Shown here: one piece after another, positions 1 to 38,378 of the stretch | Layout: the number at the start of each line of letters is the position of its first letter | Position numbering within the stretch: the stretch's first letter is position 1 | From: Escherichia coli | Lineage (GTDB): Bacteria; Pseudomonadota; Gammaproteobacteria; Enterobacterales; Enterobacteriaceae | Assembly (NCBI RefSeq): GCF_044647545.1 | Contig: NZ_CP172818.1 | Direction: 5' to 3' (one strand) | Length of the DNA stretch: 64,000 nucleotides | Position numbers and translations under genes: made by a program | The notes under the pieces: generated by a model | What the model saw: the letters and a program-made list of their open reading frames with translations, nothing else | What the model was told of the DNA's origin: nothing | The model's database searches: none

Positions 1-1
1 C

Positions 2-208
2 TCATCGGCCTGTACTGACGCAGTGAATGCGCCGGAATGGCGGTATTACTGGCAGGTCAACATGCCAGCCGCCACCAACACCACCTGGATGACATGTGGC
101 GATCCCTGTGATTCCGCACTGCGTATCTGGGGCGACACCGTTGTCGAGTGCGTGCTTAACAAACTCTGCCCTTCGCATACCTACGTAATTTTTAAATATC
201 CGGAGTAA
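2..208 (+). CDS. C-terminal fragment of a phage tail/baseplate protein, truncated by window edge
   Basis: Open frame running from window start to TAA at 206-208, directly upstream of stfP; position matches the gene preceding stfP in e14; identity not recognised. Confidence 0.35.
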
Positions 209-211
209 TCC

Positions 212-841
212 ATGCATCGTATAGACACGAAAACCGCGCAGAAGGATAAGTTCGGCGCGGGTAAGAACGGTTTTACCCGTGGTAACCCCCAGACCGGCAC
301 ACCTGCCACCGATCTGGATGATGACTACTTTGACATGTTGCAGGAAGAACTTTGTAGCGTGGTGGAGGCCTCCGGTGCCAGCCTGGAGAAAGGGCGGCAT
401 GACCAGATGCTTACCGCACTTCGTGCGCTGCTGTTAAGCCGCAAGAATCCGTTTGGCGATATCAAATCGGATGGCACTGTGCAAACGGCTCTCGAAAACC
501 TTAGTTTAGGAGAAGGAGCAAAACTCAATGCAGCAACGGCTACATTAGGACGCACCGGTTTCATAGCTATACCGGTTATGATTGGTGGTATTGAGCAATC
601 AGTAATCATTCAGTGGGGGTGGAATGCCGCAAAAGCATCTGCCTCTGGGGGGGATGGAAATACAGTTGTATTCCCGGTTGCGTTTAATAATGCCTGTGTT
701 GCCGTTGTTGCAAATTATGACAATGTCAGCGCACCTATCAATGCAGTGGCAACGGGGGGATATACAACCACTTCGTTTTTATTACGGTGCGCAGCTCAAA
801 CGGGTAGTTATTACTATAACTGGATTGCTATTGGGTATTAA
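212..841 (+). CDS. stfP: Side tail fiber protein StfP (constant N-part fused to P-orientation variable part)
   Basis: 209-aa ORF; junction motif NLSLGEGAKL at the pix site; same length as K-12 StfP. Confidence 0.8.
   Translation: MHRIDTKTAQKDKFGAGKNGFTRGNPQTGTPATDLDDDYFDMLQEELCSVVEASGASLEKGRHDQMLTALRALLLSRKNPFGDIKSDGTVQTALENLSLGEGAKLNAATATLGRTGFIAIPVMIGGIEQSVIIQWGWNAAKASASGGDGNTVVFPVAFNNACVAVVANYDNVSAPINAVATGGYTTTSFLLRCAAQTGSYYYNWIAIGY
489..514 (+). other. pixL: Hin/Gin/Cin-type 26-bp inversion crossover site inside stfP
   Basis: ctctcgAAAACCttAGTTTaggagaa; AAACC-NN-GGTTT-like core; inverted relative to site at 2310-2335. Confidence 0.6.
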
Positions 842-842
842 G

Positions 843-1319
843 ATGAAAATATACTGTTGCTTAAATACCGTTGGTTTTTTTATGGATGGCTGTGGCGTCA
901 TTCCGCCAGATTCTAAAGAAATAACGGCAGAACACTGGCAGTCATTATTAAAATCTCAAGCTGAAGGAGGCGTGATCGATTTTTCTGTTTTTCCTCCTTC
1001 TATTAAAGAGGTTATCCGTACTCATGATGATGAAGTCGCAGATGCGAACTTTCAAAAGCAGATGCTTATCTCTGATGCAACTGATTTTATCAATAGCAGA
1101 CAGTGGCAGGGTAAGGCTGCATTGGGAAGACTTAAAGAAGATGAGCTGAAACAATCTGATTTGTGGGCTGGATTATCTGGACGCACTGGCGCTGGTCGAT
1201 ACCGCCAGTGCGCCGGATCTGAATGGCCTACGCCTCCGGCAGTTCAGGCCAGTAAATATCCGGTACAGTGCTGGTATCCGTTGCCATCACCGCGTCAATG
1301 TAATCCAGCACGGCGTTAA
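843..1319 (+). CDS. tfaP: Tail fiber assembly protein TfaP (start uncertain)
   Basis: ATG at 843 immediately after stfP stop; 3' end overlaps convergent tfaE; C-terminal region atypical so exact ends uncertain. Confidence 0.5.
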   Translation: MKIYCCLNTVGFFMDGCGVIPPDSKEITAEHWQSLLKSQAEGGVIDFSVFPPSIKEVIRTHDDEVADANFQKQMLISDATDFINSRQWQGKAALGRLKEDELKQSDLWAGLSGRTGAGRYRQCAGSEWPTPPAVQASKYPVQCWYPLPSPRQCNPARR

Positions 1320-1830
1320 GTCGGGTGTTTTCTGTCTGCGTCAGCTTCCTCCCGGCCTGCAATTTCAGTTGAATCAGACTAATTGAAGCCATTGCAGTAT
1401 CAATCAGTGACTGGCGCTGTGCTTCTGCCGCTTCTATTGCGGCACCGTATTGTGCCTCGGTATCGGTTACCCATTTCTCACCATCCCATTTATCGTATGG
1501 TGTTAACGGAGCGATAGTGGTCATATTTTCAGGGTAATCCCCTGGCGCTGTGATTTCTTTTGGTTCTCCCGTTTCGGTGCTATAAACAATTTCACCGCGA
1601 TGGTCTGGCACATATTTCCACGAGTTCAAATCCGTTGAGCGGCAAATTGCATAACCCGTTTTATGTGTACCAGGTGCATCTAAACAAGAACATGCCGGGA
1701 TACCGACACCGACAGCAAGATATTCGGTTGATGTTGAGATATATTCCTGTGTCCCATTATCATAGTTATAAACGGTAATATCCCCTGCCTTTACCGCGAT
1801 CAGCGCATCATTTAATACAGCTCCACCCAT
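1228..1830 (-). CDS. tfaE: Tail fiber assembly protein TfaE
   Basis: 200-aa ORF with typical Tfa C-terminal region (...VPDIYWPELPEA). Confidence 0.8.
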   Translation of the reverse strand: MGGAVLNDALIAVKAGDITVYNYDNGTQEYISTSTEYLAVGVGIPACSCLDAPGTHKTGYAICRSTDLNSWKYVPDHRGEIVYSTETGEPKEITAPGDYPENMTTIAPLTPYDKWDGEKWVTDTEAQYGAAIEAAEAQRQSLIDTAMASISLIQLKLQAGRKLTQTENTRLNAVLDYIDAVMATDTSTVPDIYWPELPEA

Positions 1831-2330
1831 TATGCAGCCCTCACGATATAATTAAATGAAATATTTCGTGGACGTGATTCGTTACCGAATTTATCTGAAC
1901 CATCAGTATTTCTCGCTGAATATGTTTGGAGGATTGTCCCTGATGATGGATTCGCATTATATTCATTTGTTCCTGCTGGATAGTATGACATTGCACTATT
2001 GTCATCTTTGAAAACAGCAGACATCAATCCATCACCACCACTTCCGTAAGCAGTTGTAAGAAATGACGGTGATCGAAAGAAAGACTATTTTGTGCCGAAA
2101 GTAAGGGAACGACCAGAATCTACCCCGCGCCCATCATCCCAGCCACGAATAAACTCACCACGTAAATCAGGCAATTTATTTGTCGGGTAAGCCTTCGCCA
2201 GTTTTGGATATTCAACGGCAGAAAAAGCCGCACCGTTGCATTTCAGCCAGCCAGTAGGCGGTGTGGCTGAAGGCCACGGAACAGGCACACCAACGGGTAA
2301 TGCCGAACCTTCTCCCAAACCAAGGTTTAT
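1830..2330 (-). pseudogene. stfE: Alternative tail-fiber variable segment StfE, interrupted by in-frame TAG at 2085-2087
   Basis: ORFs 2085..2390 and 1830..2027 are in the same frame, separated by a TAG; junction motif NLGLGEGSAL parallels StfP; an uninterrupted frame would give 166 aa. Confidence 0.6.
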
Positions 2331-2335
2331 GAAAA
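2310..2335 (+). other. pixR: Hin/Gin/Cin-type inversion crossover site just upstream of pin
   Basis: ttctcccAAACCaaGGTTTatgaaaa closely resembles hix/gix/cix consensus; reverse complement matches the 489-514 site core. Confidence 0.7.
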
Positions 2336-2392
2336 TGCGGAATAAGCGGCAAATGGCATCATTCCTGCTTTTGTCAGGGAGAGCTACCATGC

Positions 2393-2941
2393 TTATTGGC
2401 TATGTATGTGTGTCAACAAATGACCGAAACACAAATCTACAGCGTAATGCGCTGAACTGTGCAGGATGCGACTCATTTTTGAAGACAAGATAAGCGGTAC
2501 AAAGTCTGAAAGGCCGGGACTGAAAAAACTGCTCAGGACATTATCGGCAGGTGACACGCTGGTGGTCTGGAAACTGGACCGGCTGGGGCGTAGTATGCGG
2601 CATCTGGTCATTCTGGTTGAGGAGTTGCGCGAACGTGGCGTTAATTTTCGCAGCCTAACAGATGCTATTGATATCAGCACATTCGATGGGGCGTTTTTCT
2701 TTATGTGATGGGGGCCTTGGCTGAAATTGAGCGTGAACTGATTGTTGAACGAACAAAAGCTGGACTGGAAACTGCTCGTGCACAGGGACGAATTGGTGGA
2801 CGTCGTCCCAAACTTACACCAGAACAATGGGCACAAGCTGGACGATTAATTGCAGCAGGAACTCCTCGCCAGAAGGTGGCGATTATCTATGATGTTGGTG
2901 TGTCAACTTTGTATAAGAGGTTTCCTGCAGGGGATAAATAA
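2393..2941 (+). pseudogene. pin: Serine invertase Pin, disrupted by two frameshifts
   Basis: Three consecutive ORF pieces in three frames (MLIGYVCVSTNDR... stop at 2495-2497; ...RLIFEDKISGTKSERPGLKK... stop near 2706-2708; ...MGALAEIERELIVERTKAGL...GDK); together they cover a Gin/Hin-like invertase. Confidence 0.8.
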
Positions 2942-3047
2942 AGTTAAAGACACTTTGTGTACAAAAGAAAGTAAAACAACAGCAACTTGTTGCAATTTTA
3001 TCAATAAAAGTAGTATTGTCGTGAAAAATTGATTAAAGATTAATATT

Positions 3048-3881
3048 ATGCATGTTTTTGATAATAATGGAATTGAACTGAAAGCTGAGTGTTCGATAGG
3101 TGAAGAGGATGGTGTTTATGGTCTAATCCTTGAGTCGTGGGGGCCGGGTGACAGAAACAAAGATTACAATATCGCTCTTGATTATATCATTGAACGGTTG
3201 GTTGATTCTGGTGTATCCCAAGTCGTAGTATATCTGGCGTCATCATCAGTCAGAAAACATATGCATTCTTTGGATGAAAGAAAAATCCATCCTGGTGAAT
3301 ATTTTACTTTGATTGGTAATAGCCCCCGCGATATACGCTTGAAGATGTGTGGTTATCAGGCTTATTTTAGTCGTACGGGGAGAAAGGAAATTCCTTCCGG
3401 CAATAGAACGAAACGAATATTGATAAATGTTCCAGGTATTTATAGTGACAGTTTTTGGGCGTCTATAATACGTGGAGAACTATCAGAGCTTTCACAGCCT
3501 ACAGATGATGAATCGCTTCTGAATATGAGGGTTAGTAAATTAATTAAGAAAACGTTGAGTCAACCCGAGGGCTCCAGGAAACCAGTTGAGGTAGAAAGAC
3601 TACAAAAAGTTTATGTCCGAGACCCGATGGTAAAAGCTTGGATTTTACAGCAAAGTAAAGGTATATGTGAAAACTGTGGTAAAAATGCTCCGTTTTATTT
3701 AAATGATGGAAACCCATATTTGGAAGTACATCATGTAATTCCCCTGTCTTCAGGTGGTGCTGATACAACAGATAACTGTGTTGCCCTTTGTCCGAATTGC
3801 CATAGAGAATTGCACTATAGTAAAAATGCAAAAGAACTAATCGAGATGCTTTACGTTAATATAAACCGATTACAGAAATAA
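3048..3881 (+). CDS. mcrA: 5-methylcytosine-specific restriction endonuclease McrA (HNH)
   Basis: 277-aa ORF with C-terminal HNH motif (CENCG...HHVIPLSSGG...CPNCH). Confidence 0.9.
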   Translation: MHVFDNNGIELKAECSIGEEDGVYGLILESWGPGDRNKDYNIALDYIIERLVDSGVSQVVVYLASSSVRKHMHSLDERKIHPGEYFTLIGNSPRDIRLKMCGYQAYFSRTGRKEIPSGNRTKRILINVPGIYSDSFWASIIRGELSELSQPTDDESLLNMRVSKLIKKTLSQPEGSRKPVEVERLQKVYVRDPMVKAWILQQSKGICENCGKNAPFYLNDGNPYLEVHHVIPLSSGGADTTDNCVALCPNCHRELHYSKNAKELIEMLYVNINRLQK

Positions 3882-4125
3882 AATTATTTATTAAAGTCAC
3901 ATTTAAGACGTAATACCCTACAGGGTAAAAATTTTCTCTGATCTTAACTTCTGCAAATGTTAACTGCTATTTTTATGCTAAAAATGGTTATCAAAACTCA
4001 AAAACACATGTTTATAATCAATGAGTTATAGAAATGCTAAGGGCTAATGAGTTATATGCAAATTAGTAAAATTATGTTGCTATGTCAGATAGTTACGATT
4101 TAGTCATCTAACTAATGTACGCCAT

Positions 4126-4278
4126 ATGGGCTGGACTGAAGCCGCAGACTTGATTGTTAAAGGTATGGAAGGCGCAATCAACGCCAAGACTGTAACCTAT
4201 GACTTCGAACGTCTGATGGAAGGCGCTAAACTGCTGAAATGTTCAGAGTTTGGTGACGCGATCATCAAGAATATGTAA
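4126..4278 (+). pseudogene. icdC: icdC: displaced 3' fragment of isocitrate dehydrogenase at prophage attR
   Basis: Encodes [50 protein letters not shown], the Icd C-terminus, without an upstream body. Confidence 0.85.
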
Positions 4279-4301
4279 TTACTACATGTGTTAAATATTG
4301 T

Positions 4302-4334
4302 AACGGGCGTATAACACGCCCGTTGTTTTATTTA
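4302..4334 (+). terminator. Rho-independent terminator (icd 3' terminator)
   Basis: Hairpin aacgggcgt-ataac-acgcccgtt followed by gttttatttat. Confidence 0.6.
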
Positions 4335-4380
4335 TGTGGGTATTATTAATAGCACATTGAGCATATTTATATGAAGCCCA

Positions 4381-4704
4381 TTACTTGAGCCCATATGGGC
4401 ATATTTTTATAATGCAACTATTATGCAAACATTTATTTGTTATTTTGCTTTCTCCTGGAGGACACTCTTGACTGCTTTTGAGTAAACTCCATAAATCCTT
4501 GTTGAATGGTGCGATGTTATAAATAGTAATAGGATATTCTTTATCCTTAAGGATAATACCAGATTTAACCGGTGTAAATATCCTGCCAGGAGGAAGAAAT
4601 ATAGTGGATTGATACCAGATGATCATTTTCATATCACCCCATATGGCTGAAAAAGATATGCCGCATGTAGGTTGAATTACCGTGTCAATTACTATCCACT
4701 TCAT
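4381..4704 (-). CDS. iraM: Anti-adaptor protein IraM
   Basis: 107-aa [33 protein letters not shown]... recognised as IraM. Confidence 0.9.
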
Positions 4705-5148
4705 TTGTTATGTCTTATCCCACGGTGCTTAATATAGTTCATTTGGATGTTCATTTCTTGATTTTGCATATGTGTATATTACTCCCAAAAAAATAAATTA
4801 ATTAAAAATTAATGTCATTATCTATATAAAACAAAATTTAAAGCAAGGAATCTCAATAGAGATTAAACAAAATGAGATTTAGTGAAAACATTAAATTATT
4901 CACTTCGTTTTAGATTTGTTTAGCTAAAATGTTATACATTCAAATGACTGAATATTCTGTAATTAAAACATAGCCTTTATGCTACTTTGAGCCAATTTGC
5001 TAAACATTATGGTTGGCCTTTTAATATAACGATAATGATGAATATAAGCATGACCTGAGAATAAGGTTTCAATTTTTTAGTTATATAAAAATGGTTAAAC
5101 CCGTTCCTGACTAAAATACATATAATCGGATGATGACTAAACCAAAAC

Positions 5149-5200
5149 ACATGTGCGTTAAGTATTGAAACGGGCGTATGGCACGCCCGTTGGTTTTATA
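5149..5200 (+). repeat. Second copy of the icd-terminator-like hairpin module (direct repeat of 4283-4334)
   Basis: acatgtgcgttaagtattgaaacgggcgtatggcacgcccgttggttttat versus acatgtgttaaatattgtaacgggcgtataacacgcccgttgttttattt. Confidence 0.55.
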
Positions 5201-5406
5201 AATATGTTAACCGTTATAAAATAACGTATAGAAAGTCAAGTGATCACATTTCAAATATTAAGTTGATAGTATTGGCCTGGTGATTATTTATGGGTGGCAA
5301 TAAAAAGACAGTATTTATCATCCATAGGGATAGTCTCTGCACTTTTATTTCCATTATGCTAATGCCTTACTGAATTATGAAGCATTTCTTAAGCTTCCAA
5401 CTTTAG

Positions 5407-5811
5407 CTAGATTAATGGTTTATTGTTTTCTACATCTTCAATATATAAAAGCGTATTATCAATGGCGTAGTAACTGCGTTTGTTATGATTAACATCAGTA
5501 ACCCACCGGAAAACGCCCGCGTCTGCCAGTGTTGAACAGTATTCCCGAAATGTAGATTTTCCGCAAATATGAAGCAATGCGGCCTCTTTTATTTTAGCAG
5601 GGTTCTTGGTCGTACTAACTTTTAACAGGTTCCTGGTTCCTCTTAATAACAAAACCGTGTCATCGTGAGTAATAATTCTGATGTTATCCGTAGCTAGATA
5701 ATAAATGTAATGTGCAATACGGTGATGTTTTAATTCTGAATAAAACCAGGAGAAGTTTTGCTCTTTTCTCACTTGCTCAAACATCTTTTGAAAAACAACG
5801 ACCTGATCCAT
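5407..5811 (-). CDS. ycgX: Uncharacterized protein YcgX
   Basis: 134-aa ORF at the K-12 ycgX position. Confidence 0.8.
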   Translation of the reverse strand: MDQVVVFQKMFEQVRKEQNFSWFYSELKHHRIAHYIYYLATDNIRIITHDDTVLLLRGTRNLLKVSTTKNPAKIKEAALLHICGKSTFREYCSTLADAGVFRWVTDVNHNKRSYYAIDNTLLYIEDVENNKPLI

Positions 5812-6031
5812 CAGGATAATAACCTCTTGTTAGTTGTGAGACTGCGTAGTGTGCACGATCGGTTTTACCACTTCAATCTGGTCTGTCCTTTGGCTGTGAT
5901 ATGTACAAAGTGTGAAAGGGGGATTACCTGAATTCTCCCGGTGAGCATTTTGTAATGGACCAGCTCCGGTACAAACGCTGTTGTGGGTTCAGATTATAAC
6001 ATTCTGTCTAAGGGGCGGGATAAAGGTGAAA

Positions 6032-6763
6032 TTAGGGGGCATGGAAGATGACTTTATAACCTTGCTCACCCCAGTGTTGTAAAAGTTCGTTTTGCCTTCT
6101 CGTTGGTGCCATGCCTGTCCAGACAATTAATGTTTGCGTCGGGAACAGTTCCGGGCGCGGCGATTCAATGGGATCAGCAAGAACAGAAATGTGCCATCCT
6201 GACAATGATAAACGCCATGCTTCCAGCCACAATCGTGCTCTCTCTTCAACATTCCACGCCATCAGAATGGCTTCTTTACCGGGCTTACGGCGCATTTCGA
6301 AAAGCGAGGCTGCTGCGTATTCAATTAATGCGCCGTCAAACATACTGCTCATAATGCGGGAGGTGTTGTGATCAAGCACGAGACGCTGGCGAACAGGAAG
6401 GTAAACATGATTAATCAATTGATCTACTGGGTACTCTCGGCCCAGTGAAATAATTCTCGCGCGTAGTTTGGCAGGATTAGCCATACGAAGAATTGACATC
6501 ATCTCTTCTTGCAGGCGGCTCCAGTCATCTTCCGTATCCTGGCTGGTGGTTTCCAGTAATGCTTTAACTTTGCCTACAGGGACGCCATTACTTATCCAAC
6601 GCTTGATCTCTTCGATGCGTTGTATGTCTTCTTCATCAAAGAGTCGGTGTCCGCCTTCACTGCGCTGTGGTTTTAACAAACCGTAGCGGCGTTGCCAGGC
6701 CCGGAGAGTGACAGGATTAATCCCGCAACGTTCAGCAACATCACCAATGCTGTAATAAGCCAC
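6032..6763 (-). CDS. bluR: MerR-family repressor BluR
   Basis: 243-aa ORF with N-terminal MerR HTH ([30 protein letters not shown]...). Confidence 0.9.
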
Positions 6764-6967
6764 AATTCCTCCTTGCGGTCACAAATCTCCGTCGCCTGTA
6801 CACGACCCAATAATACTTTGTACAATATACGCTAAAATTGTACAAAGTATAAATAAGATTTCAGCTAAATTGAATGAAACATTATTTTTAATGTGGATTA
6901 AATTTAAACATAACGTATTCATTTTCACGATGATTTTCAGAAATCATACGAAATAATGTGCTGGAAA

Positions 6968-8179
6968 TTATTTTTTCTCCGGCCACGCAACTGAAGGGAT
7001 ACCATTCAATTTAGCTTTCGCAAACAGATCTCCCTGAAACATCTCAATTCCTGCAGATTCAAGCCACATCCACTCTTCTGGTGTTGTCACACCCATAGCA
7101 GAGACTTGAATTTCAAGTGATGTACAGCATTTTATGATCGCTTGAATAATTGCCTGCCGTGGCCCGCTTTTATGAACATTGGTAATCAATTCCTGACTGA
7201 TTTTAATTCTGTCAGGCTGGAAGCGTGACAGGAGTAACAAACCGGCAAAACCTGCGCCAAAATGATCAATTGCTACACTGATACCGGCAGCCTTAAGCGA
7301 TTTAATCGCTTCTGCAAACTCATCAAACCGAGATATGACTTCACTTTCAGTAAATTCAACGATGATTTGTTCAGGCACCAGAGCATTGGCCTTTATTTCA
7401 TCAAGTAAAAAAGAGACTGCGTCAGGTTCGTTAACCAGGGTCATAGGTAATAGATTGATTGAAATCATTTTATCACCGAGCTCAAGTGCGTGTGCCATCG
7501 CGAATGCAAGCGCCTTACTTTTGAGATCCGCTGTATAGATTTCCCCGTCTTTACGCTGCCCAACCGCTATAGCTGATGGGCTATCTTCATTTTTTTGCAC
7601 AATGGCTTCAAAAGCGATTATCCGCCGCGATAAGGGATCGACAATAGGATGAAAGGCAAAGTGGTCGTTTATAGTTGGTGAAAGGGTACAGGAATCAAGT
7701 TCTTTATCAGATCCGTCAGCGATAAAAAGCCAGGAGTCTTCGGCAGGGATCTCGAAATAGGTTGCTTGTTCGGTTGCAAGGACAAAAGTACGAAAAAATT
7801 GTAGCGCTCTGTCATCATAAGTTAGCTGAAATTTTGATGTGCCTTTGTCGAATACGGCCTGTAAAACGTCATCTCGCTCGTGCAGGCGCAAATCAAATAA
7901 TTCCATTCCCGCTTTGTCAAAACGGCGAGCAGGCGCGTAATCGCACATCAGCTCAACAATATTATAGTGCCGTGGATCCTGGCATATAGCCCGATATATC
8001 ATTTTAACCTGTTCTTCCGGACCTTCCAGAAGCTGGAAAAAATGAGAACCATTAAACAGTAAGATCCCTGTTACGTCAGACAGCATGTTCCTGCGATTTG
8101 CTATCGAAACCATTTCTTCGATTTTTTTGACAGGTTCGTCGTCACGTATATGGCTACGATAAATAAGGGTGGTAAGCAT
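6968..8179 (-). CDS. bluF: Blue-light sensor BluF (BLUF + degenerate EAL)
   Basis: 403 aa from ATG at 8179 (MLTTLIYRSHIRDDEP...); ORF-track start at 8257 is an upstream extension. Confidence 0.9.
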   Translation of the reverse strand: MLTTLIYRSHIRDDEPVKKIEEMVSIANRRNMLSDVTGILLFNGSHFFQLLEGPEEQVKMIYRAICQDPRHYNIVELMCDYAPARRFDKAGMELFDLRLHERDDVLQAVFDKGTSKFQLTYDDRALQFFRTFVLATEQATYFEIPAEDSWLFIADGSDKELDSCTLSPTINDHFAFHPIVDPLSRRIIAFEAIVQKNEDSPSAIAVGQRKDGEIYTADLKSKALAFAMAHALELGDKMISINLLPMTLVNEPDAVSFLLDEIKANALVPEQIIVEFTESEVISRFDEFAEAIKSLKAAGISVAIDHFGAGFAGLLLLSRFQPDRIKISQELITNVHKSGPRQAIIQAIIKCCTSLEIQVSAMGVTTPEEWMWLESAGIEMFQGDLFAKAKLNGIPSVAWPEKK

Positions 8180-8416
8180 TAACTGTCCAGGGTAATGGGA
8201 GAGGCGAGAGTAAGACGGTAACAGACATATCTTCCGGTGTCTTTCTTTTAATACCAAAACATAACTGTTTCTTTACATTGATAAAAAATGGAAAAAGTTG
8301 AAGATGAGTTGGCGAAAATTTTTGTATAGGTTGTTATTTAAATGATGCAATATTTTTTATCATAACCTGTTGTTTTGTATGTATTAGCACTAAATGCAAA
8401 AAATTAATTTATCATT

Positions 8417-8438
8417 TTGTACACATATTTCGTACAAG
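8417..8438. promoter_or_regulatory. Candidate MerR-type (BluR) operator in ycgZ promoter
   Basis: Imperfect inverted repeat ttGTACAcatatttcgTACAAg about 60 bp upstream of ycgZ ATG. Confidence 0.3.
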
Positions 8439-8492
8439 TTTGCTATTGTTACCTCACTTAACATTGATTAACATTTTTAACAGAGGCGTAGC

Positions 8493-8729
8493 ATGCATCA
8501 AAATTCAGTGACTTTAGATTCTGCGGGAGCAATCACTCGTTACTTTGCAAAAGCTAACTTGCCTACTCAGCAGGAAACTCTCGGAGAAATTGTGACTGAG
8601 ATTTTGAAAGATGGACGTAATCTGAGTCGAAAGTCGCTTTGTGCCAAACTTCTAGGTCGACTGGAACAAGCGACAGGGGAAGAGGAACAGAAACATTATA
8701 ATGCACTAATTGGGTTGCTTTTTGAATAA
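8493..8729 (+). CDS. ycgZ: YcgZ
   Basis: 78-aa ORF, first gene of ycgZ-ymgA-ariR-ymgC cluster. Confidence 0.85.
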   Translation: MHQNSVTLDSAGAITRYFAKANLPTQQETLGEIVTEILKDGRNLSRKSLCAKLLGRLEQATGEEEQKHYNALIGLLFE

Positions 8730-8771
8730 TGCAACAGCCTGATTATTTAACAGGTTAGCTATGAAGTCGTT

Positions 8772-9044
8772 ATGAAGACATCTGATAATGAAAGTACAAA
8801 ATATGAAATTACTGGCCAGGCGGTGCTCCAGATACTGCGCATGAAGATAAATTTTTCGTTGCAGACTCTTATTAAGCAATTACTCGTAATGAAATCTGTT
8901 GAGGAAAATGCTTTCCGACGAGATTTAATTGACAGCATAATTCGTGATTTTAGTAACAGTGATACAGGAGGGCCAAACAGAAGAACAGCGATAACTGACA
9001 ATAAAAGTATTTTCAATGGTAAGAAAATAAACAGAATACATTAA
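8772..9044 (+). CDS. ymgA: YmgA
   Basis: 90-aa ORF. Confidence 0.85.
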   Translation: MKTSDNESTKYEITGQAVLQILRMKINFSLQTLIKQLLVMKSVEENAFRRDLIDSIIRDFSNSDTGGPNRRTAITDNKSIFNGKKINRIH

Positions 9045-9072
9045 AATTTCATAAGTAAGATGAGAGGTTACT

Positions 9073-9339
9073 ATGCTTGAAGATACTACTATTCATAATG
9101 CAATAGCTGATAAAGCGTTATCAAGTTACTTTCGCAGTTCGGGTAATTTGTTAGAAGAAGAGTCAGCTGTGTTAGGGCAGGCTGTCACCAATTTAATGCT
9201 TTCAGGCGATAATGTTAATAATAAAAATATTATCTTAAGTCTGATACACTCCCTGGAAACAACAAATGATATCCTCAAAGCTGATGTGATCAGAAAAACA
9301 CTGGAAATCGTGTTGCGATACACAGCGGATGATATGTGA
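9073..9339 (+). CDS. ariR: AriR (YmgB), acid-resistance/biofilm regulator
   Basis: 88-aa [23 protein letters not shown]... Confidence 0.85.
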
Positions 9340-9451
9340 CTTTTAATTATTAAGTATAAATTTATAGAAAACTCATTCATCTTATTTTTGTCTGTCGCTT
9401 TAGACTATACACAGCATAATTTTATTGGGTTAATATTTCTACGAGGCTGAC

Positions 9452-32648: not shown

Positions 32649-33033
32649 CTTGTTGTAAGCCGGATCGGAGGCAGCGTCTTCTGGTTGCGAAAAAATCATC
32701 CATCCGGCTGGTCAGCAACTGTAGTTGGTGATGTGACAGAGCCATTTCCCATGATAGTGTCCATTACAATGATGGACACTATTTCCCCGGAACCTGAACT
32801 CACCGCACAGGCGTTCTACATAAAACGCTTACGTTTCATTGTTGACTCGAACTCGACTTCAGATAAATCACGCTTCACCCTTGATGGAGCCTGTACATAG
32901 ATTTGTGTAATTGCCTGATTTTGATATGTTCAATTCACCTTCAAATGAAGGTGAATTTATGGCCGACAAACAATTACAGGCTCTGGCTGCGGTCAGTAAA
33001 GCATCGCATCCGGCGATAGATGCTGCATTAAAT

Positions 33034-37681: not shown

Positions 37682-38082
37682 GATTTTCATAAGGCGGATA
37701 GTGATACAGATGCCGCTATCCGCTTTCACATCAGAACGTATACTCGATACCTGCTTTACGGGGTGAAAAAAATCAATATAGCACTTCGATATCCGATAAA
37801 GTCGGTTCCCGGTAACAACAACAGAATCCTTTTTTAATTATTGTTTCGTTGTTTTTGGTGTGATTCAGAAAATAAATATTTTAGACAGTAGCCAGTCAGG
37901 CGTTAAAAATGGGGCGGATAGTGAGGCGGTTTTGGCTGCGCTTATTGAACATTTTCAGAATTGATCAGAATCCTTCTGTAGATTCGTAGCCAAAATACCC
38001 GTTCGGCAATGCTTCAGTTACGCGAAGAGGAATGGGTCTGAATTCTTTTTTTGGTTGTCAACTTTGGTAGTGTCTGGATTAT

Positions 38083-38286
38083 GTGATTATTAATTTAACT
38101 CCAGAAAGCAAAAAACGTCGACGAAGTGAACACCAGACATTCAGGAAGCAATTGATGCTTTATATAGCCAACGTCTGGGGCGTAAAGTCGCTGGGTGATG
38201 AGGTGAGACACTTACCCGTAAATGACGCTAATTCGCAAAATCCACGCACTCCAAACATTTGCGCAATACTTCCCGCCAGGACTTGA
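38083..38286 (+). CDS. Hypothetical 67-aa ORF in the interval where K-12 carries ycgY (possible remnant)
   Basis: Only + strand ORF of at least 60 aa between ymgE and treA; GTG start; no recognisable domain. Confidence 0.2.
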   Translation: MIINLTPESKKRRRSEHQTFRKQLMLYIANVWGVKSLGDEVRHLPVNDANSQNPRTPNICAILPART

Positions 38287-38378
38287 AAAACCGTCGTGAG
38301 AAAAAACCATAGCTATGGTGTTATCCGCCGACAACGCCATCCGGAGAAGCCGAATGACGTTGTCGGAGTAAGCGCTGG

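Follow-up and report, generated by a model that had tools for sequence, protein, structure and literature searches.

Can the tail-fibre segment at the beginning of this stretch of E. coli DNA still be inverted? In DNA-inversion systems of the Din type, a small serine recombinase binds two inverted 26-bp sites. The 5' part of the recombinase gene contains an enhancer to which Fis is bound; both sites are cut at the central 2 bp, and the segment is rotated by 180 degrees. Switches of the Hin/Gin/Cin/Pin class are already known, ordinary, and long described; the question here concerns the copy in this strain, which is either frozen or mis-assembled. An earlier note on this DNA had proposed a segment locked in the StfP orientation, in which an alternative fiber with an in-frame stop codon decays together with the invertase. 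We analyzed the window, that is, the whole stretch of 64 kb. We conclude, with a probability of roughly 0.88, that we are dealing with the P (Pin) invertible segment, located where an e14-type cryptic prophage at icd has its right end, and that this copy is disabled as written and its cargo partly broken.

Identity of the locus

The features of the region are listed in Table 1. The segment is followed by pin, mcrA, and an icd' remnant in that order, and it is therefore assigned to the right end of an e14-type prophage integrated at icd, the end that is covered by the window. The left end of e14 carries lit, int, and xis; in CP092703.1, a near-identical relative, int, xis, and a Peptidase_U49 (Lit) gene are found upstream. 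Overall identity to stfP-tfaP-tfaE-stfE-pinE-mcrA-icd' of K-12 is 94.6%, with the same synteny, and Pfam supported all gene assignments. The full ymfQ-like gene of CP092703.1 matches Phage_Mu_Gp48. The P segment and PinE of K-12 e14 were reportedly described by Plasterk and van de Putte.

As proposed in the earlier note, the invertible segment is about 1.8 kb long (1821 bp from crossover point to crossover point). It is orthologous to the K-12 P segment, and its content, stfP(variable)-tfaP and the convergent tfaE-stfE, agrees with the K-12 annotation and with Pfam. The orientation is StfP-on, the same as in the K-12 locus compared, and an intact 209-aa StfP is read in it.

Table 1. Coordinates of the features at the prophage end (positions in the window)
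Feature	Position	Strand	Evidence or remark
ymfQ-like baseplate gene, 3' end	1..208	+	aligns to K-12 ymfQ
stfP, intact 209-aa ORF	212..841	+	Pfam Gp53-like_C, E=8e-16
Left crossover site, CTCTCGAAAACC TT AGTTTAGGAGAA	489..514	.	inside stfP
tfaP, damaged	843..1319	+	Caudo_TAP; alignment to K-12
tfaE, intact 200-aa ORF for tail-fibre assembly in the silent cassette	1228..1830	-	Caudo_TAP profile positions 1-131, E=4e-32
Block 99.6% identical to P2-like prophage G gene and H C-terminus	1243..2326	.	sequence comparison
stfE' variable part (tail-collar fibre C-terminus), interrupted	1830..2322	-	Pfam Collar domain
Out-of-frame stretch, 16 codons	2055..2103	-	bounded by +1 indel (2103) and -1 indel (2055)
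Right crossover site, TTCTCCCAAACC AA GGTTTATGAAAA	2310..2335	.	upstream of pin
Short leader (MVALPDKSRNDAICRLFRIFIN...) beyond the segment, joined to the cassette that faces pin	2336..2390	-	ORF 2085-2390
pinE pseudogene	2389..2941	+	Resolvase and HTH_7 (Pfam), three reading frames
Stretch homologous to the Fis-dependent recombinational enhancer	2407..2477	.	pin/gin/cin alignment; P1 annotation
mcrA (HNH endonuclease)	3048..3881	+	identical to K-12
icd' remnant, prophage right end	4115..4278	+	near-identical to K-12; chromosomal backbone begins here

Crossover sites and products of inversion

Two 26-bp sites lie in inverted orientation at the predicted positions. They are complementary at 20 of 26 bases over 489-514 / 2310-2335 and at 19 of 21 over 496-516 / 2308-2328, the top inverted repeat of the region. 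The central dinucleotides, TT on the left and AA on the right, are complementary, as inversion requires, and the pair is that of a Din-type system. When compared with known sites, both aligned with the annotated boundaries of the Mu G segment (gix) and with the cixL/cixR crossovers of P1. The core AAACC-NN-GGTTT, claimed for both sites, is complete in the right site only: the left core is AAACC-TT-AGTTT, with one half-site AAACT in place of AAACC. Relative to the K-12 e14 sites at the same positions (CTCTCGAAAACCTTGGTTTGGGAGAA and TTCTCCCAAACCAACGTTTATGAAAA), the left site shows two G>A changes, at 503 and 508. We do not take these as proof of a dead site, since the functional right site of K-12 deviates at the same half-site position (AAACG) and the T at the other changed position also occurs in the P1 sites.

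The 12-mer core is not significant alone (three matches with at most one mismatch in 64 kb versus 2.86 expected), and of 100 shuffles of 400-2450, 2 also gave an inverted repeat of 19/21. The real support for the sites comes from their orthology to the K-12 e14 sites, whose inversion was demonstrated experimentally, with 1797 bp between the same repeats (PMC12529663). Here the spacing between the 16-bp repeats is 1791 bp, 6 bp shorter. Our own measurement on the K-12 sequence reproduced the published 1797 bp.

Inversion would join the constant N-terminus of the fibre (stfP 212-501) to one of two cassettes, each comprising a C-terminus and a chaperone. When the segment was inverted in silico, the fusions were in frame on both sides. 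StfP2 is halted at 175 aa by a TAG, and a StfE2-like ORF of 135 aa (leader plus StfP variable part) is intact. With a constant N-terminus, two convergent cassettes, and two in-frame fusions, the locus has the layout of a tail-fibre host-range switch.

The invertase gene and the enhancer homologue

A homologue of the adjoining serine recombinase is present, but its frame is split three ways, and the locus is a decayed member of the Din-type class rather than a non-member. The broken invertase gene claimed earlier is borne out in this sequence: pinE is a pseudogene. Its catalytic YxRVS motif shows an R7C exchange, and single-nucleotide indels disrupt the gene at four places (-1 at 2471, +1 at about 2682, T6>T5 at about 2694, and, at about 2702, a missing C in CAT). 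The part from 2740 onwards matches K-12 exactly. The best match to the diverged 5' part has 93.9% DNA identity, and the best intact relative among 5.8 billion proteins has 92% protein identity; neither the DNA search nor these proteins yielded a donor. CP092703.1, with a near-identical genomic background, encodes the same StfP and an intact 184-aa pin, indicating that the damage to pin is specific to this source. A literature search on CP092703 found nothing. The change H106Y would recall enhancer-independent invertase mutants. The apparent Pin F105L/H106Y exchange proved to be an alignment artefact, as two 1-nt deletions explain the same bases without any substitution.

According to the annotation of P1, the cin enhancer occupies gene nt 19-90. 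In the pin/gin/cin alignment, the homologous stretch of pinE carries six private substitutions. Its two G-N13-C 15-mers are putative Fis sites. The proximal one (2410-2424) is kept, and the distal one is disrupted by the 1-nt deletion at 2471; Fis binding may be lost. The pseudogene, the base missing from the distal Fis-type element, and the two transitions in the left site would together account for the disabled state, and inversion is presumably lost.

The fibre genes and the TAG codon

In stfP, the constant part (212-501) is followed by the variable part (502-841), which lies inside the segment. The sequence is identical to K-12 over 501-1100, and the exact StfP protein was found in one other record, CP092703.1. 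The following gene, tfaP, is the chaperone gene of the expressed orientation. Two indels, +G at 1165 and -A at 1218, put 18 codons out of frame, the stop codon of K-12 is absent, and the ORF continues to 1319. Only profile positions 58-106 of Caudo_TAP are matched, with a score exactly at the cutoff. The 3' end (1156-1261) diverges from K-12 by about 13%. No donor or closer allele for this patch was found in 5,426 E. coli genomes, where the best match reached 93.8% with the conserved flank and 90.4% when the patch was taken alone. Each of the ten substitutions is AT>GC. We considered DGR-like adenine mutagenesis and rejected it, as neither a reverse transcriptase nor a template repeat was present. 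Read in the corrected frame, the patch gives a Tfa C-terminus that is plausible and conservative (WLDYLDALALVDTASAPD), and with no DGR parts present it is simply another allele.

Together with its leader, stfE' spans 1830-2390 on the minus strand. The TAG reported at 2085-2087 is present: the window reads CTA, which is TAG on the minus strand, and this codon ends the frame entering from the crossover site. It is, however, the product of a frameshift pair. An extra A at 2103 and GG>G at 2055 shift the frame of the 16 codons between them, and the TAG belongs to this shifted stretch. The ORF beyond it (1830-2027) is again in the frame that enters from the crossover site. We compared 1262-2326 with the intact allele in 46 E. 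coli genomes and 3 viral contigs (49 copies). The 1-nt deletion and the 1-nt insertion were the only differences, with 0 substitutions, which excludes a point nonsense substitution.

Both indels, and with them the stop, are absent from all 49 other copies of this allele. CP092703.1 is N-masked exactly in the stfE' stretch concerned and cannot decide the matter. Exact scans of viral contigs for the double-indel stretch and for the private 5' sequence of pin found nothing, and the shorter pattern between the two indels matched only the intact P2-like allele. Exact-protein look-ups of the 101-aa StfE' fragment, the extended TfaP, two Pin fragments, and TfaE gave no record, in a collection that apparently lacks the source genome, so that this null result is silent on whether the lesions are real.

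Taken together, the cargo would be broken by the frameshifts in stfE' (which create the TAG) and in tfaP. The alternative fiber and the invertase are both interrupted, as had been claimed, but the changes are not confined to them: they extend to tfaP, to the left site, and to the enhancer stretch.

Origin of the silent cassette

Judged by its sequence, the silent cassette is a P2-like H/G module and not the stfE/tfaE allele of K-12. Over 1243-2326, it differs from the P2-like copy by two edge substitutions and the two indels and is otherwise identical. This identity stops 3 nt past the AA crossover core. The backbone of the strains that carry the P2-like prophage is about 99.99% identical to the window (4 substitutions in 40.3 kb). 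In these prophages (e.g., E. coli FDAARGOS_497 and other ST648-type genomes), the H gene has its own complete 26-bp site, TTCTCCCAAACC AA GGTATGCGAGAA. There, in contrast to the e14 locus, the module is fixed, without an invertase or a second cassette, and is fused to a long constant part in an uninterrupted H of 513 aa.

A co-resident P2-like prophage might have donated the cassette, or swapped it, by way of the crossover site itself, with the switch inactivated afterwards. Such an event would have been site-specific on one side and homologous, within the 3' end of tfa, on the other. The idea follows from the end of identity within 3 nt of the 2-bp core and from the 26-bp site in H; we nevertheless regard it as improbable. 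If true, the block would be the fresh trace of an event in which fibre modules passed between prophages by the action of an invertase. The mosaic boundary at the crossover core adds to the cases of modular exchange already known for tail-fibre genes and implies no new principle.

Real decay or assembly error

The strongest alternative holds that the frameshifts, including the pair that makes the TAG, are consensus or polishing errors in a multi-copy region, and that switch and cargo are intact in the organism. The errors could stem from a long-read consensus left unpolished, or from mis-polishing by reads that came from paralogous tfa, stf, or pin modules. What makes this a serious rival to real decay is the clustering of the nine or ten indels, all of them in the multi-copy block: nine single-base indels fall within 1150-2750 and one at the duplicated icd' junction, and the 40.3 kb of backbone is free of internal ones, as are the single-copy parts of e14 (1-1100 and 2740-4100). 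Of 5,426 E. coli genomes, 3,605 contain paralogues of the block. Two indels without any substitution relative to the 49 other copies is a ratio unusual for natural decay, and this pair brackets exactly the place of greatest difference between the K-12-type and P2-type alleles, which there also differ by 15 nt in length. The intact pin of the near-identical strain points in the same direction. On the other hand, a simple indel-type error does not explain the many substitutions in the tfaP 3' end and the pin 5' part (about 13% versus K-12, including R7C). Moreover, tfaE (603 nt) lies in the middle of the block without an indel, and most indels lie outside long homopolymers. We rate this explanation at somewhat less than an even chance and assume that the lesions are probably present in the organism as well as in the assembly. 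The case is a warning: what looked like a nonsense codon in a prophage module with many copies proved to be a pair of frameshifts peculiar to one assembly.

A second alternative accepts the lesions as real and leaves the segment unlocked: a Pin-type recombinase encoded elsewhere in the genome would invert it in trans, and a StfE2-like protein could still be produced. In K-12, three recombinases invert the P segment, PinE and, in trans from other prophages, PinR and PinQ, the last of which dominates, and the segment is documented in both orientations (PMC12529663). Since Pin-type recombinases act in trans there, "locked" does not follow from a dead pinE alone; of the earlier statement that the segment is locked in the StfP orientation, the orientation and the dead invertase stand. 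The matching TT/AA cores are kept here, the half-sites are within the range of gix, cix, and the K-12 sites, and the flip yields the intact 135-aa ORF. However, the cis-acting enhancer is needed with any recombinase, and its homologue is damaged at the distal G-N13-C element and by the private substitutions. In addition, no further recombinase gene was found within the 64-kb window. We consider inversion in trans unlikely, and a locked segment remains a plausible reading of the sequence.

The idea that the sites are chance or relic similarities in a segment never invertible in this lineage could appeal to the unenriched core and the shuffled repeats, but it is already contradicted by positional orthology to experimentally proven sites, the complete layout of a constant part, two convergent cassettes, and an adjoining invertase, and the two in-frame fusions, and we give it next to no credence.

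The disabled P segment remains our preferred reading. Inversion of the e14 P segment in K-12 is reported to be an inducible anti-phage switch: it creates StfE2, which blocks adsorption of phage T2 (Kirigo et al. 2025, PMC12529663). If the present copy is frozen StfP-on/StfE2-off, the strain is predicted to be without this inducible protection; the coding capacity for a StfE2-type protein is nevertheless intact.

Comparison with known systems

The closest relative is the P segment of K-12 e14. Both share the locus (icd), gene order, and orientation, the 26-bp sites apart from 3 bases, and 100% identity in the variable part of stfP, in mcrA, and in the 3' part of pin. The copy described here differs in its P2-like silent cassette and the 6 bp shorter segment, in the pinE pseudogene and the frameshifted tfaP and stfE', and in the two G>A changes of the left site and the base missing from the enhancer homologue.

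Like the Mu G segment with Gin and the P1 C segment with Cin, the locus consists of a constant S part and two convergent Sv-U cassettes, with the invertase beside one site and, at the 5' end of its gene, the enhancer (here an enhancer homologue). Its 26-bp sites have the half-site NNNNNNNAAACC in common with gix and cix. The Mu and P1 segments are larger (3 kb and 4.2 kb), reside in viable phages, have intact invertases, and differ in site flanks and fibre alleles.

Hin/hix of Salmonella also uses 26-bp sites, with a 65-bp enhancer about 100 bp from one site and a Fis site at each end (PMC3798978). The recombinase subclass is the same, and the enhancer homologue described here begins about 85 bp from the right site; the likeness to hix considered here is one of layout. 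The systems differ in what is switched: Hin switches a promoter, not fibre cassettes.

Organization of the locus

We searched 5,426 complete E. coli genomes by megablast. The e14 prophage of K-12 was the top match (95% coverage, 94.6% identity), and its annotation gives the same gene order as the window. The content proposed for the segment from sequence alone (stfP-tfaP, convergent tfaE-stfE, and pin beyond) is borne out by ORFs, K-12 annotation, and Pfam. Overall, the observations of that first reading held, and its interpretation only in part.

Features of the e14-type invertible segment and its surroundings
Feature	Position	Strand	Basis
Baseplate-gene 3' end	1-208		ORF listing/reading of 1-3600
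stfP	212-841	+	ORF listing; Pfam agrees
tfaP, frameshifted	843-1319	+	ORF listing; Pfam agrees
tfaE	1228-1830	-	ORF listing; Pfam agrees
stfE', fiber C-terminus	1830-2390	-	ORF listing; Pfam agrees
Resolvase-type gene (pin), split over three frames	2389-2941		ORF listing; Pfam agrees
mcrA	3048-3881		ORF listing; Pfam agrees
icd 3' fragment	4126-4278		ORF listing

The chromosomal backbone begins at 4115; over 40.3 kb, 4 substitutions and zero internal indels separate it from ST648-type strains such as FDAARGOS_497, and the ST648-type strains sharing it carry no prophage at icd. The remaining 18 kb are ordinary chromosome. Absent from the window, compared to FDAARGOS_497, are a cluster of 6.7 kb encoding a TonB-dependent receptor, ModD, and an ABC transporter, another stretch of 1.9 kb, and the island after dhaR. 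In one autotransporter gene, part of the sequence is so divergent that megablast does not align it. These differences map to 37754-38378, 32886-32973, 45678 onwards, and 12372-13959.

Crossover sites

The left site (489-514) reads CTCTCGAAAACC TT AGTTTAGGAGAA and the right site (2310-2335) TTCTCCCAAACC AA GGTTTATGAAAA. The top inverted repeat of the region (6-nt seed) pairs 496-516 with 2308-2328 at 19 of 21 bases. By themselves, the statistics support the sites weakly, since the window contains 3 matches to the 12-mer core against 2.86 expected, showing no enrichment, and 2 of 100 shuffles reached a 19/21 repeat. The two inverted sites described in the earlier note were confirmed chiefly by orthology: they are positional orthologues of the K-12 sites, the left differing by two G>A changes and the right by one C>G. 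The proposed comparison with gix and cix was also carried out, and the sites match base for base the annotated boundaries of the Mu G segment and the P1 cixL/cixR crossovers. Inversion between these same repeats, 1797 bp apart, was previously demonstrated in K-12 (Kirigo et al. 2025, PMC12529663); we measured 1797 bp in K-12 and 1791 bp in the window. The left-site changes fall on half-site positions that vary in functional sites (one gives AAACG in the K-12 right site, the other is T in cix), and we therefore rejected them as proof of a dead site. The left site also encodes a G>S change in StfP, which is present in CP092703.1, a near-identical background carrying the same StfP.

Lesions in stfE', tfaP, and pin

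As noted earlier, a TAG interrupts stfE' on the minus strand at 2085-2087, and the flanking ORFs share one frame. However, the stfE'/tfaE of the window is not the K-12 allele, with DNA divergence of up to about 60% in places. Over 1262-2326, the window differs from an intact P2-like allele only in that a G has been lost at 2055 and an A gained at 2103. Where the intact P2-like H (tail fiber) protein reads ...GRSLLSAQNSLSFDHRHFLPTAYG..., the window translates as ...GRSLTFGTK*SFFRSPSFLTTAYG... The TAG thus results from two compensating frameshifts (+1/-1) that are unique to the window sequence.

The chaperone gene of the expressed orientation, tfaP, is also frameshifted, which had escaped the first reading: +G at 1165 and -A at 1218 shift 18 codons. 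Because the P2-like block starts at 1243, the K-12 stop is lost and the frame reads through into the tfaE 3' end. The tfaP 3' end is approximately 13% diverged from K-12, and no closer allele was found among the 5,426 genomes.

The first 350 nt of pin differ by at least 6% from every pinE in the genome collection. From 2740 on, the gene is identical to K-12. Four 1-nt indels break its frame, and R7C alters the catalytic YxRVS motif; in a search of 5.8 billion proteins, no match to the frame-repaired translation exceeded 92%. A further private substitution, M114I (window 2728), affects codon 114, which presumably lies in the oligomerization helix, where enhancer-independent invertase mutants map. 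Apparent F105L/H106Y changes nearby were rejected as an alignment artefact.

In the P1 record, the cin enhancer is annotated at gene nt 19-90. Aligning pin, gin, and cin revealed two conserved G-N13-C 15-mers (nt 22-36 and 71-85), one at each enhancer end. In the window, nt 83 is lost through the deletion at 2471, which destroys the distal 15-mer. Considering that Hin-class invertases require a Fis-bound enhancer in cis (PMC3798978), this deletion could block inversion with any recombinase.

Decay or assembly artefact

Nine single-base indels relative to the nearest relatives all lie in 1150-2750, and one more falls at 4117, the duplicated icd' junction; the 40.3-kb backbone is free of them, as are e14 parts 1-1100 and 2740-4100. 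In two pairs (1165/1218 and 2055/2103), the indels compensate each other's frame and lie approximately 50 nt apart. That the indels arose in assembly is quite possible, if somewhat short of probable: most E. coli genomes carry paralogues of the affected part of e14, and two indels with zero substitutions over 1 kb are an odd ratio for natural decay. However, pin and tfaP carry private substitutions that do not resemble long-read consensus errors, and tfaE is free of indels. CP092703.1 (GCA_022488285.1), with only three non-N differences over window 2750-10813, has an intact pin of 184 aa and a tfaP whose 3' end is K-12-like, so the damage is specific to the source of the window; its scattered Ns, concentrated in stfE', make it unusable for checking the indels there.

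In K-12, PinE, PinQ, and PinR all invert the segment, and the inverted state yields StfE2, a protein composed of the leader and the variable part of StfP that blocks adsorption of T2 (PMC12529663). Inverting the window in silico gave an intact 135-aa StfE2-like ORF and an StfP2 that the TAG truncates at 175 aa. Should the lesions be real, the strain would be fixed StfP-on, unless a trans-acting recombinase and the damaged enhancer still suffice.

Mosaic structure and relation to known systems

The window matches K-12 closely over 1-1100 and 2740-4100 (zero differences in 501-1100 and 2801-4100). All 17 substitutions relative to K-12 in 1-600 are common to CP092703.1. This e14 belongs to a lineage of its own and resides in a non-K-12 (ST648-like) backbone, the sequenced relatives of which lack e14. 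The divergent block, 1152-2745, is also the range that aligns to inversion modules of P2-like phages, e.g., pro483. Within it, 1243-2326 shares 99.6% identity with the G (assembly) gene and the H C-terminus of a P2-like prophage. That prophage occurs in 46 complete genomes, including several ST648-type strains with the shared backbone, and in 3 IMG/VR contigs. Identity to H ends 3 nt past the AA core.

Exchange of fiber modules at these crossover sites is an old idea from the 1990s literature. The mosaic boundary is compatible with it, and with site-specific and homologous exchange alike. Taken together, the system itself was already known, and the window holds a degraded or imperfectly assembled copy of it. 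In the P2-like prophage of FDAARGOS_497, no invertase lies next to the H gene, although that gene holds its own complete 26-bp cix-like site, TTCTCCCAAACC AA GGTATGCGAGAA (6481-6506 of that prophage, L003).
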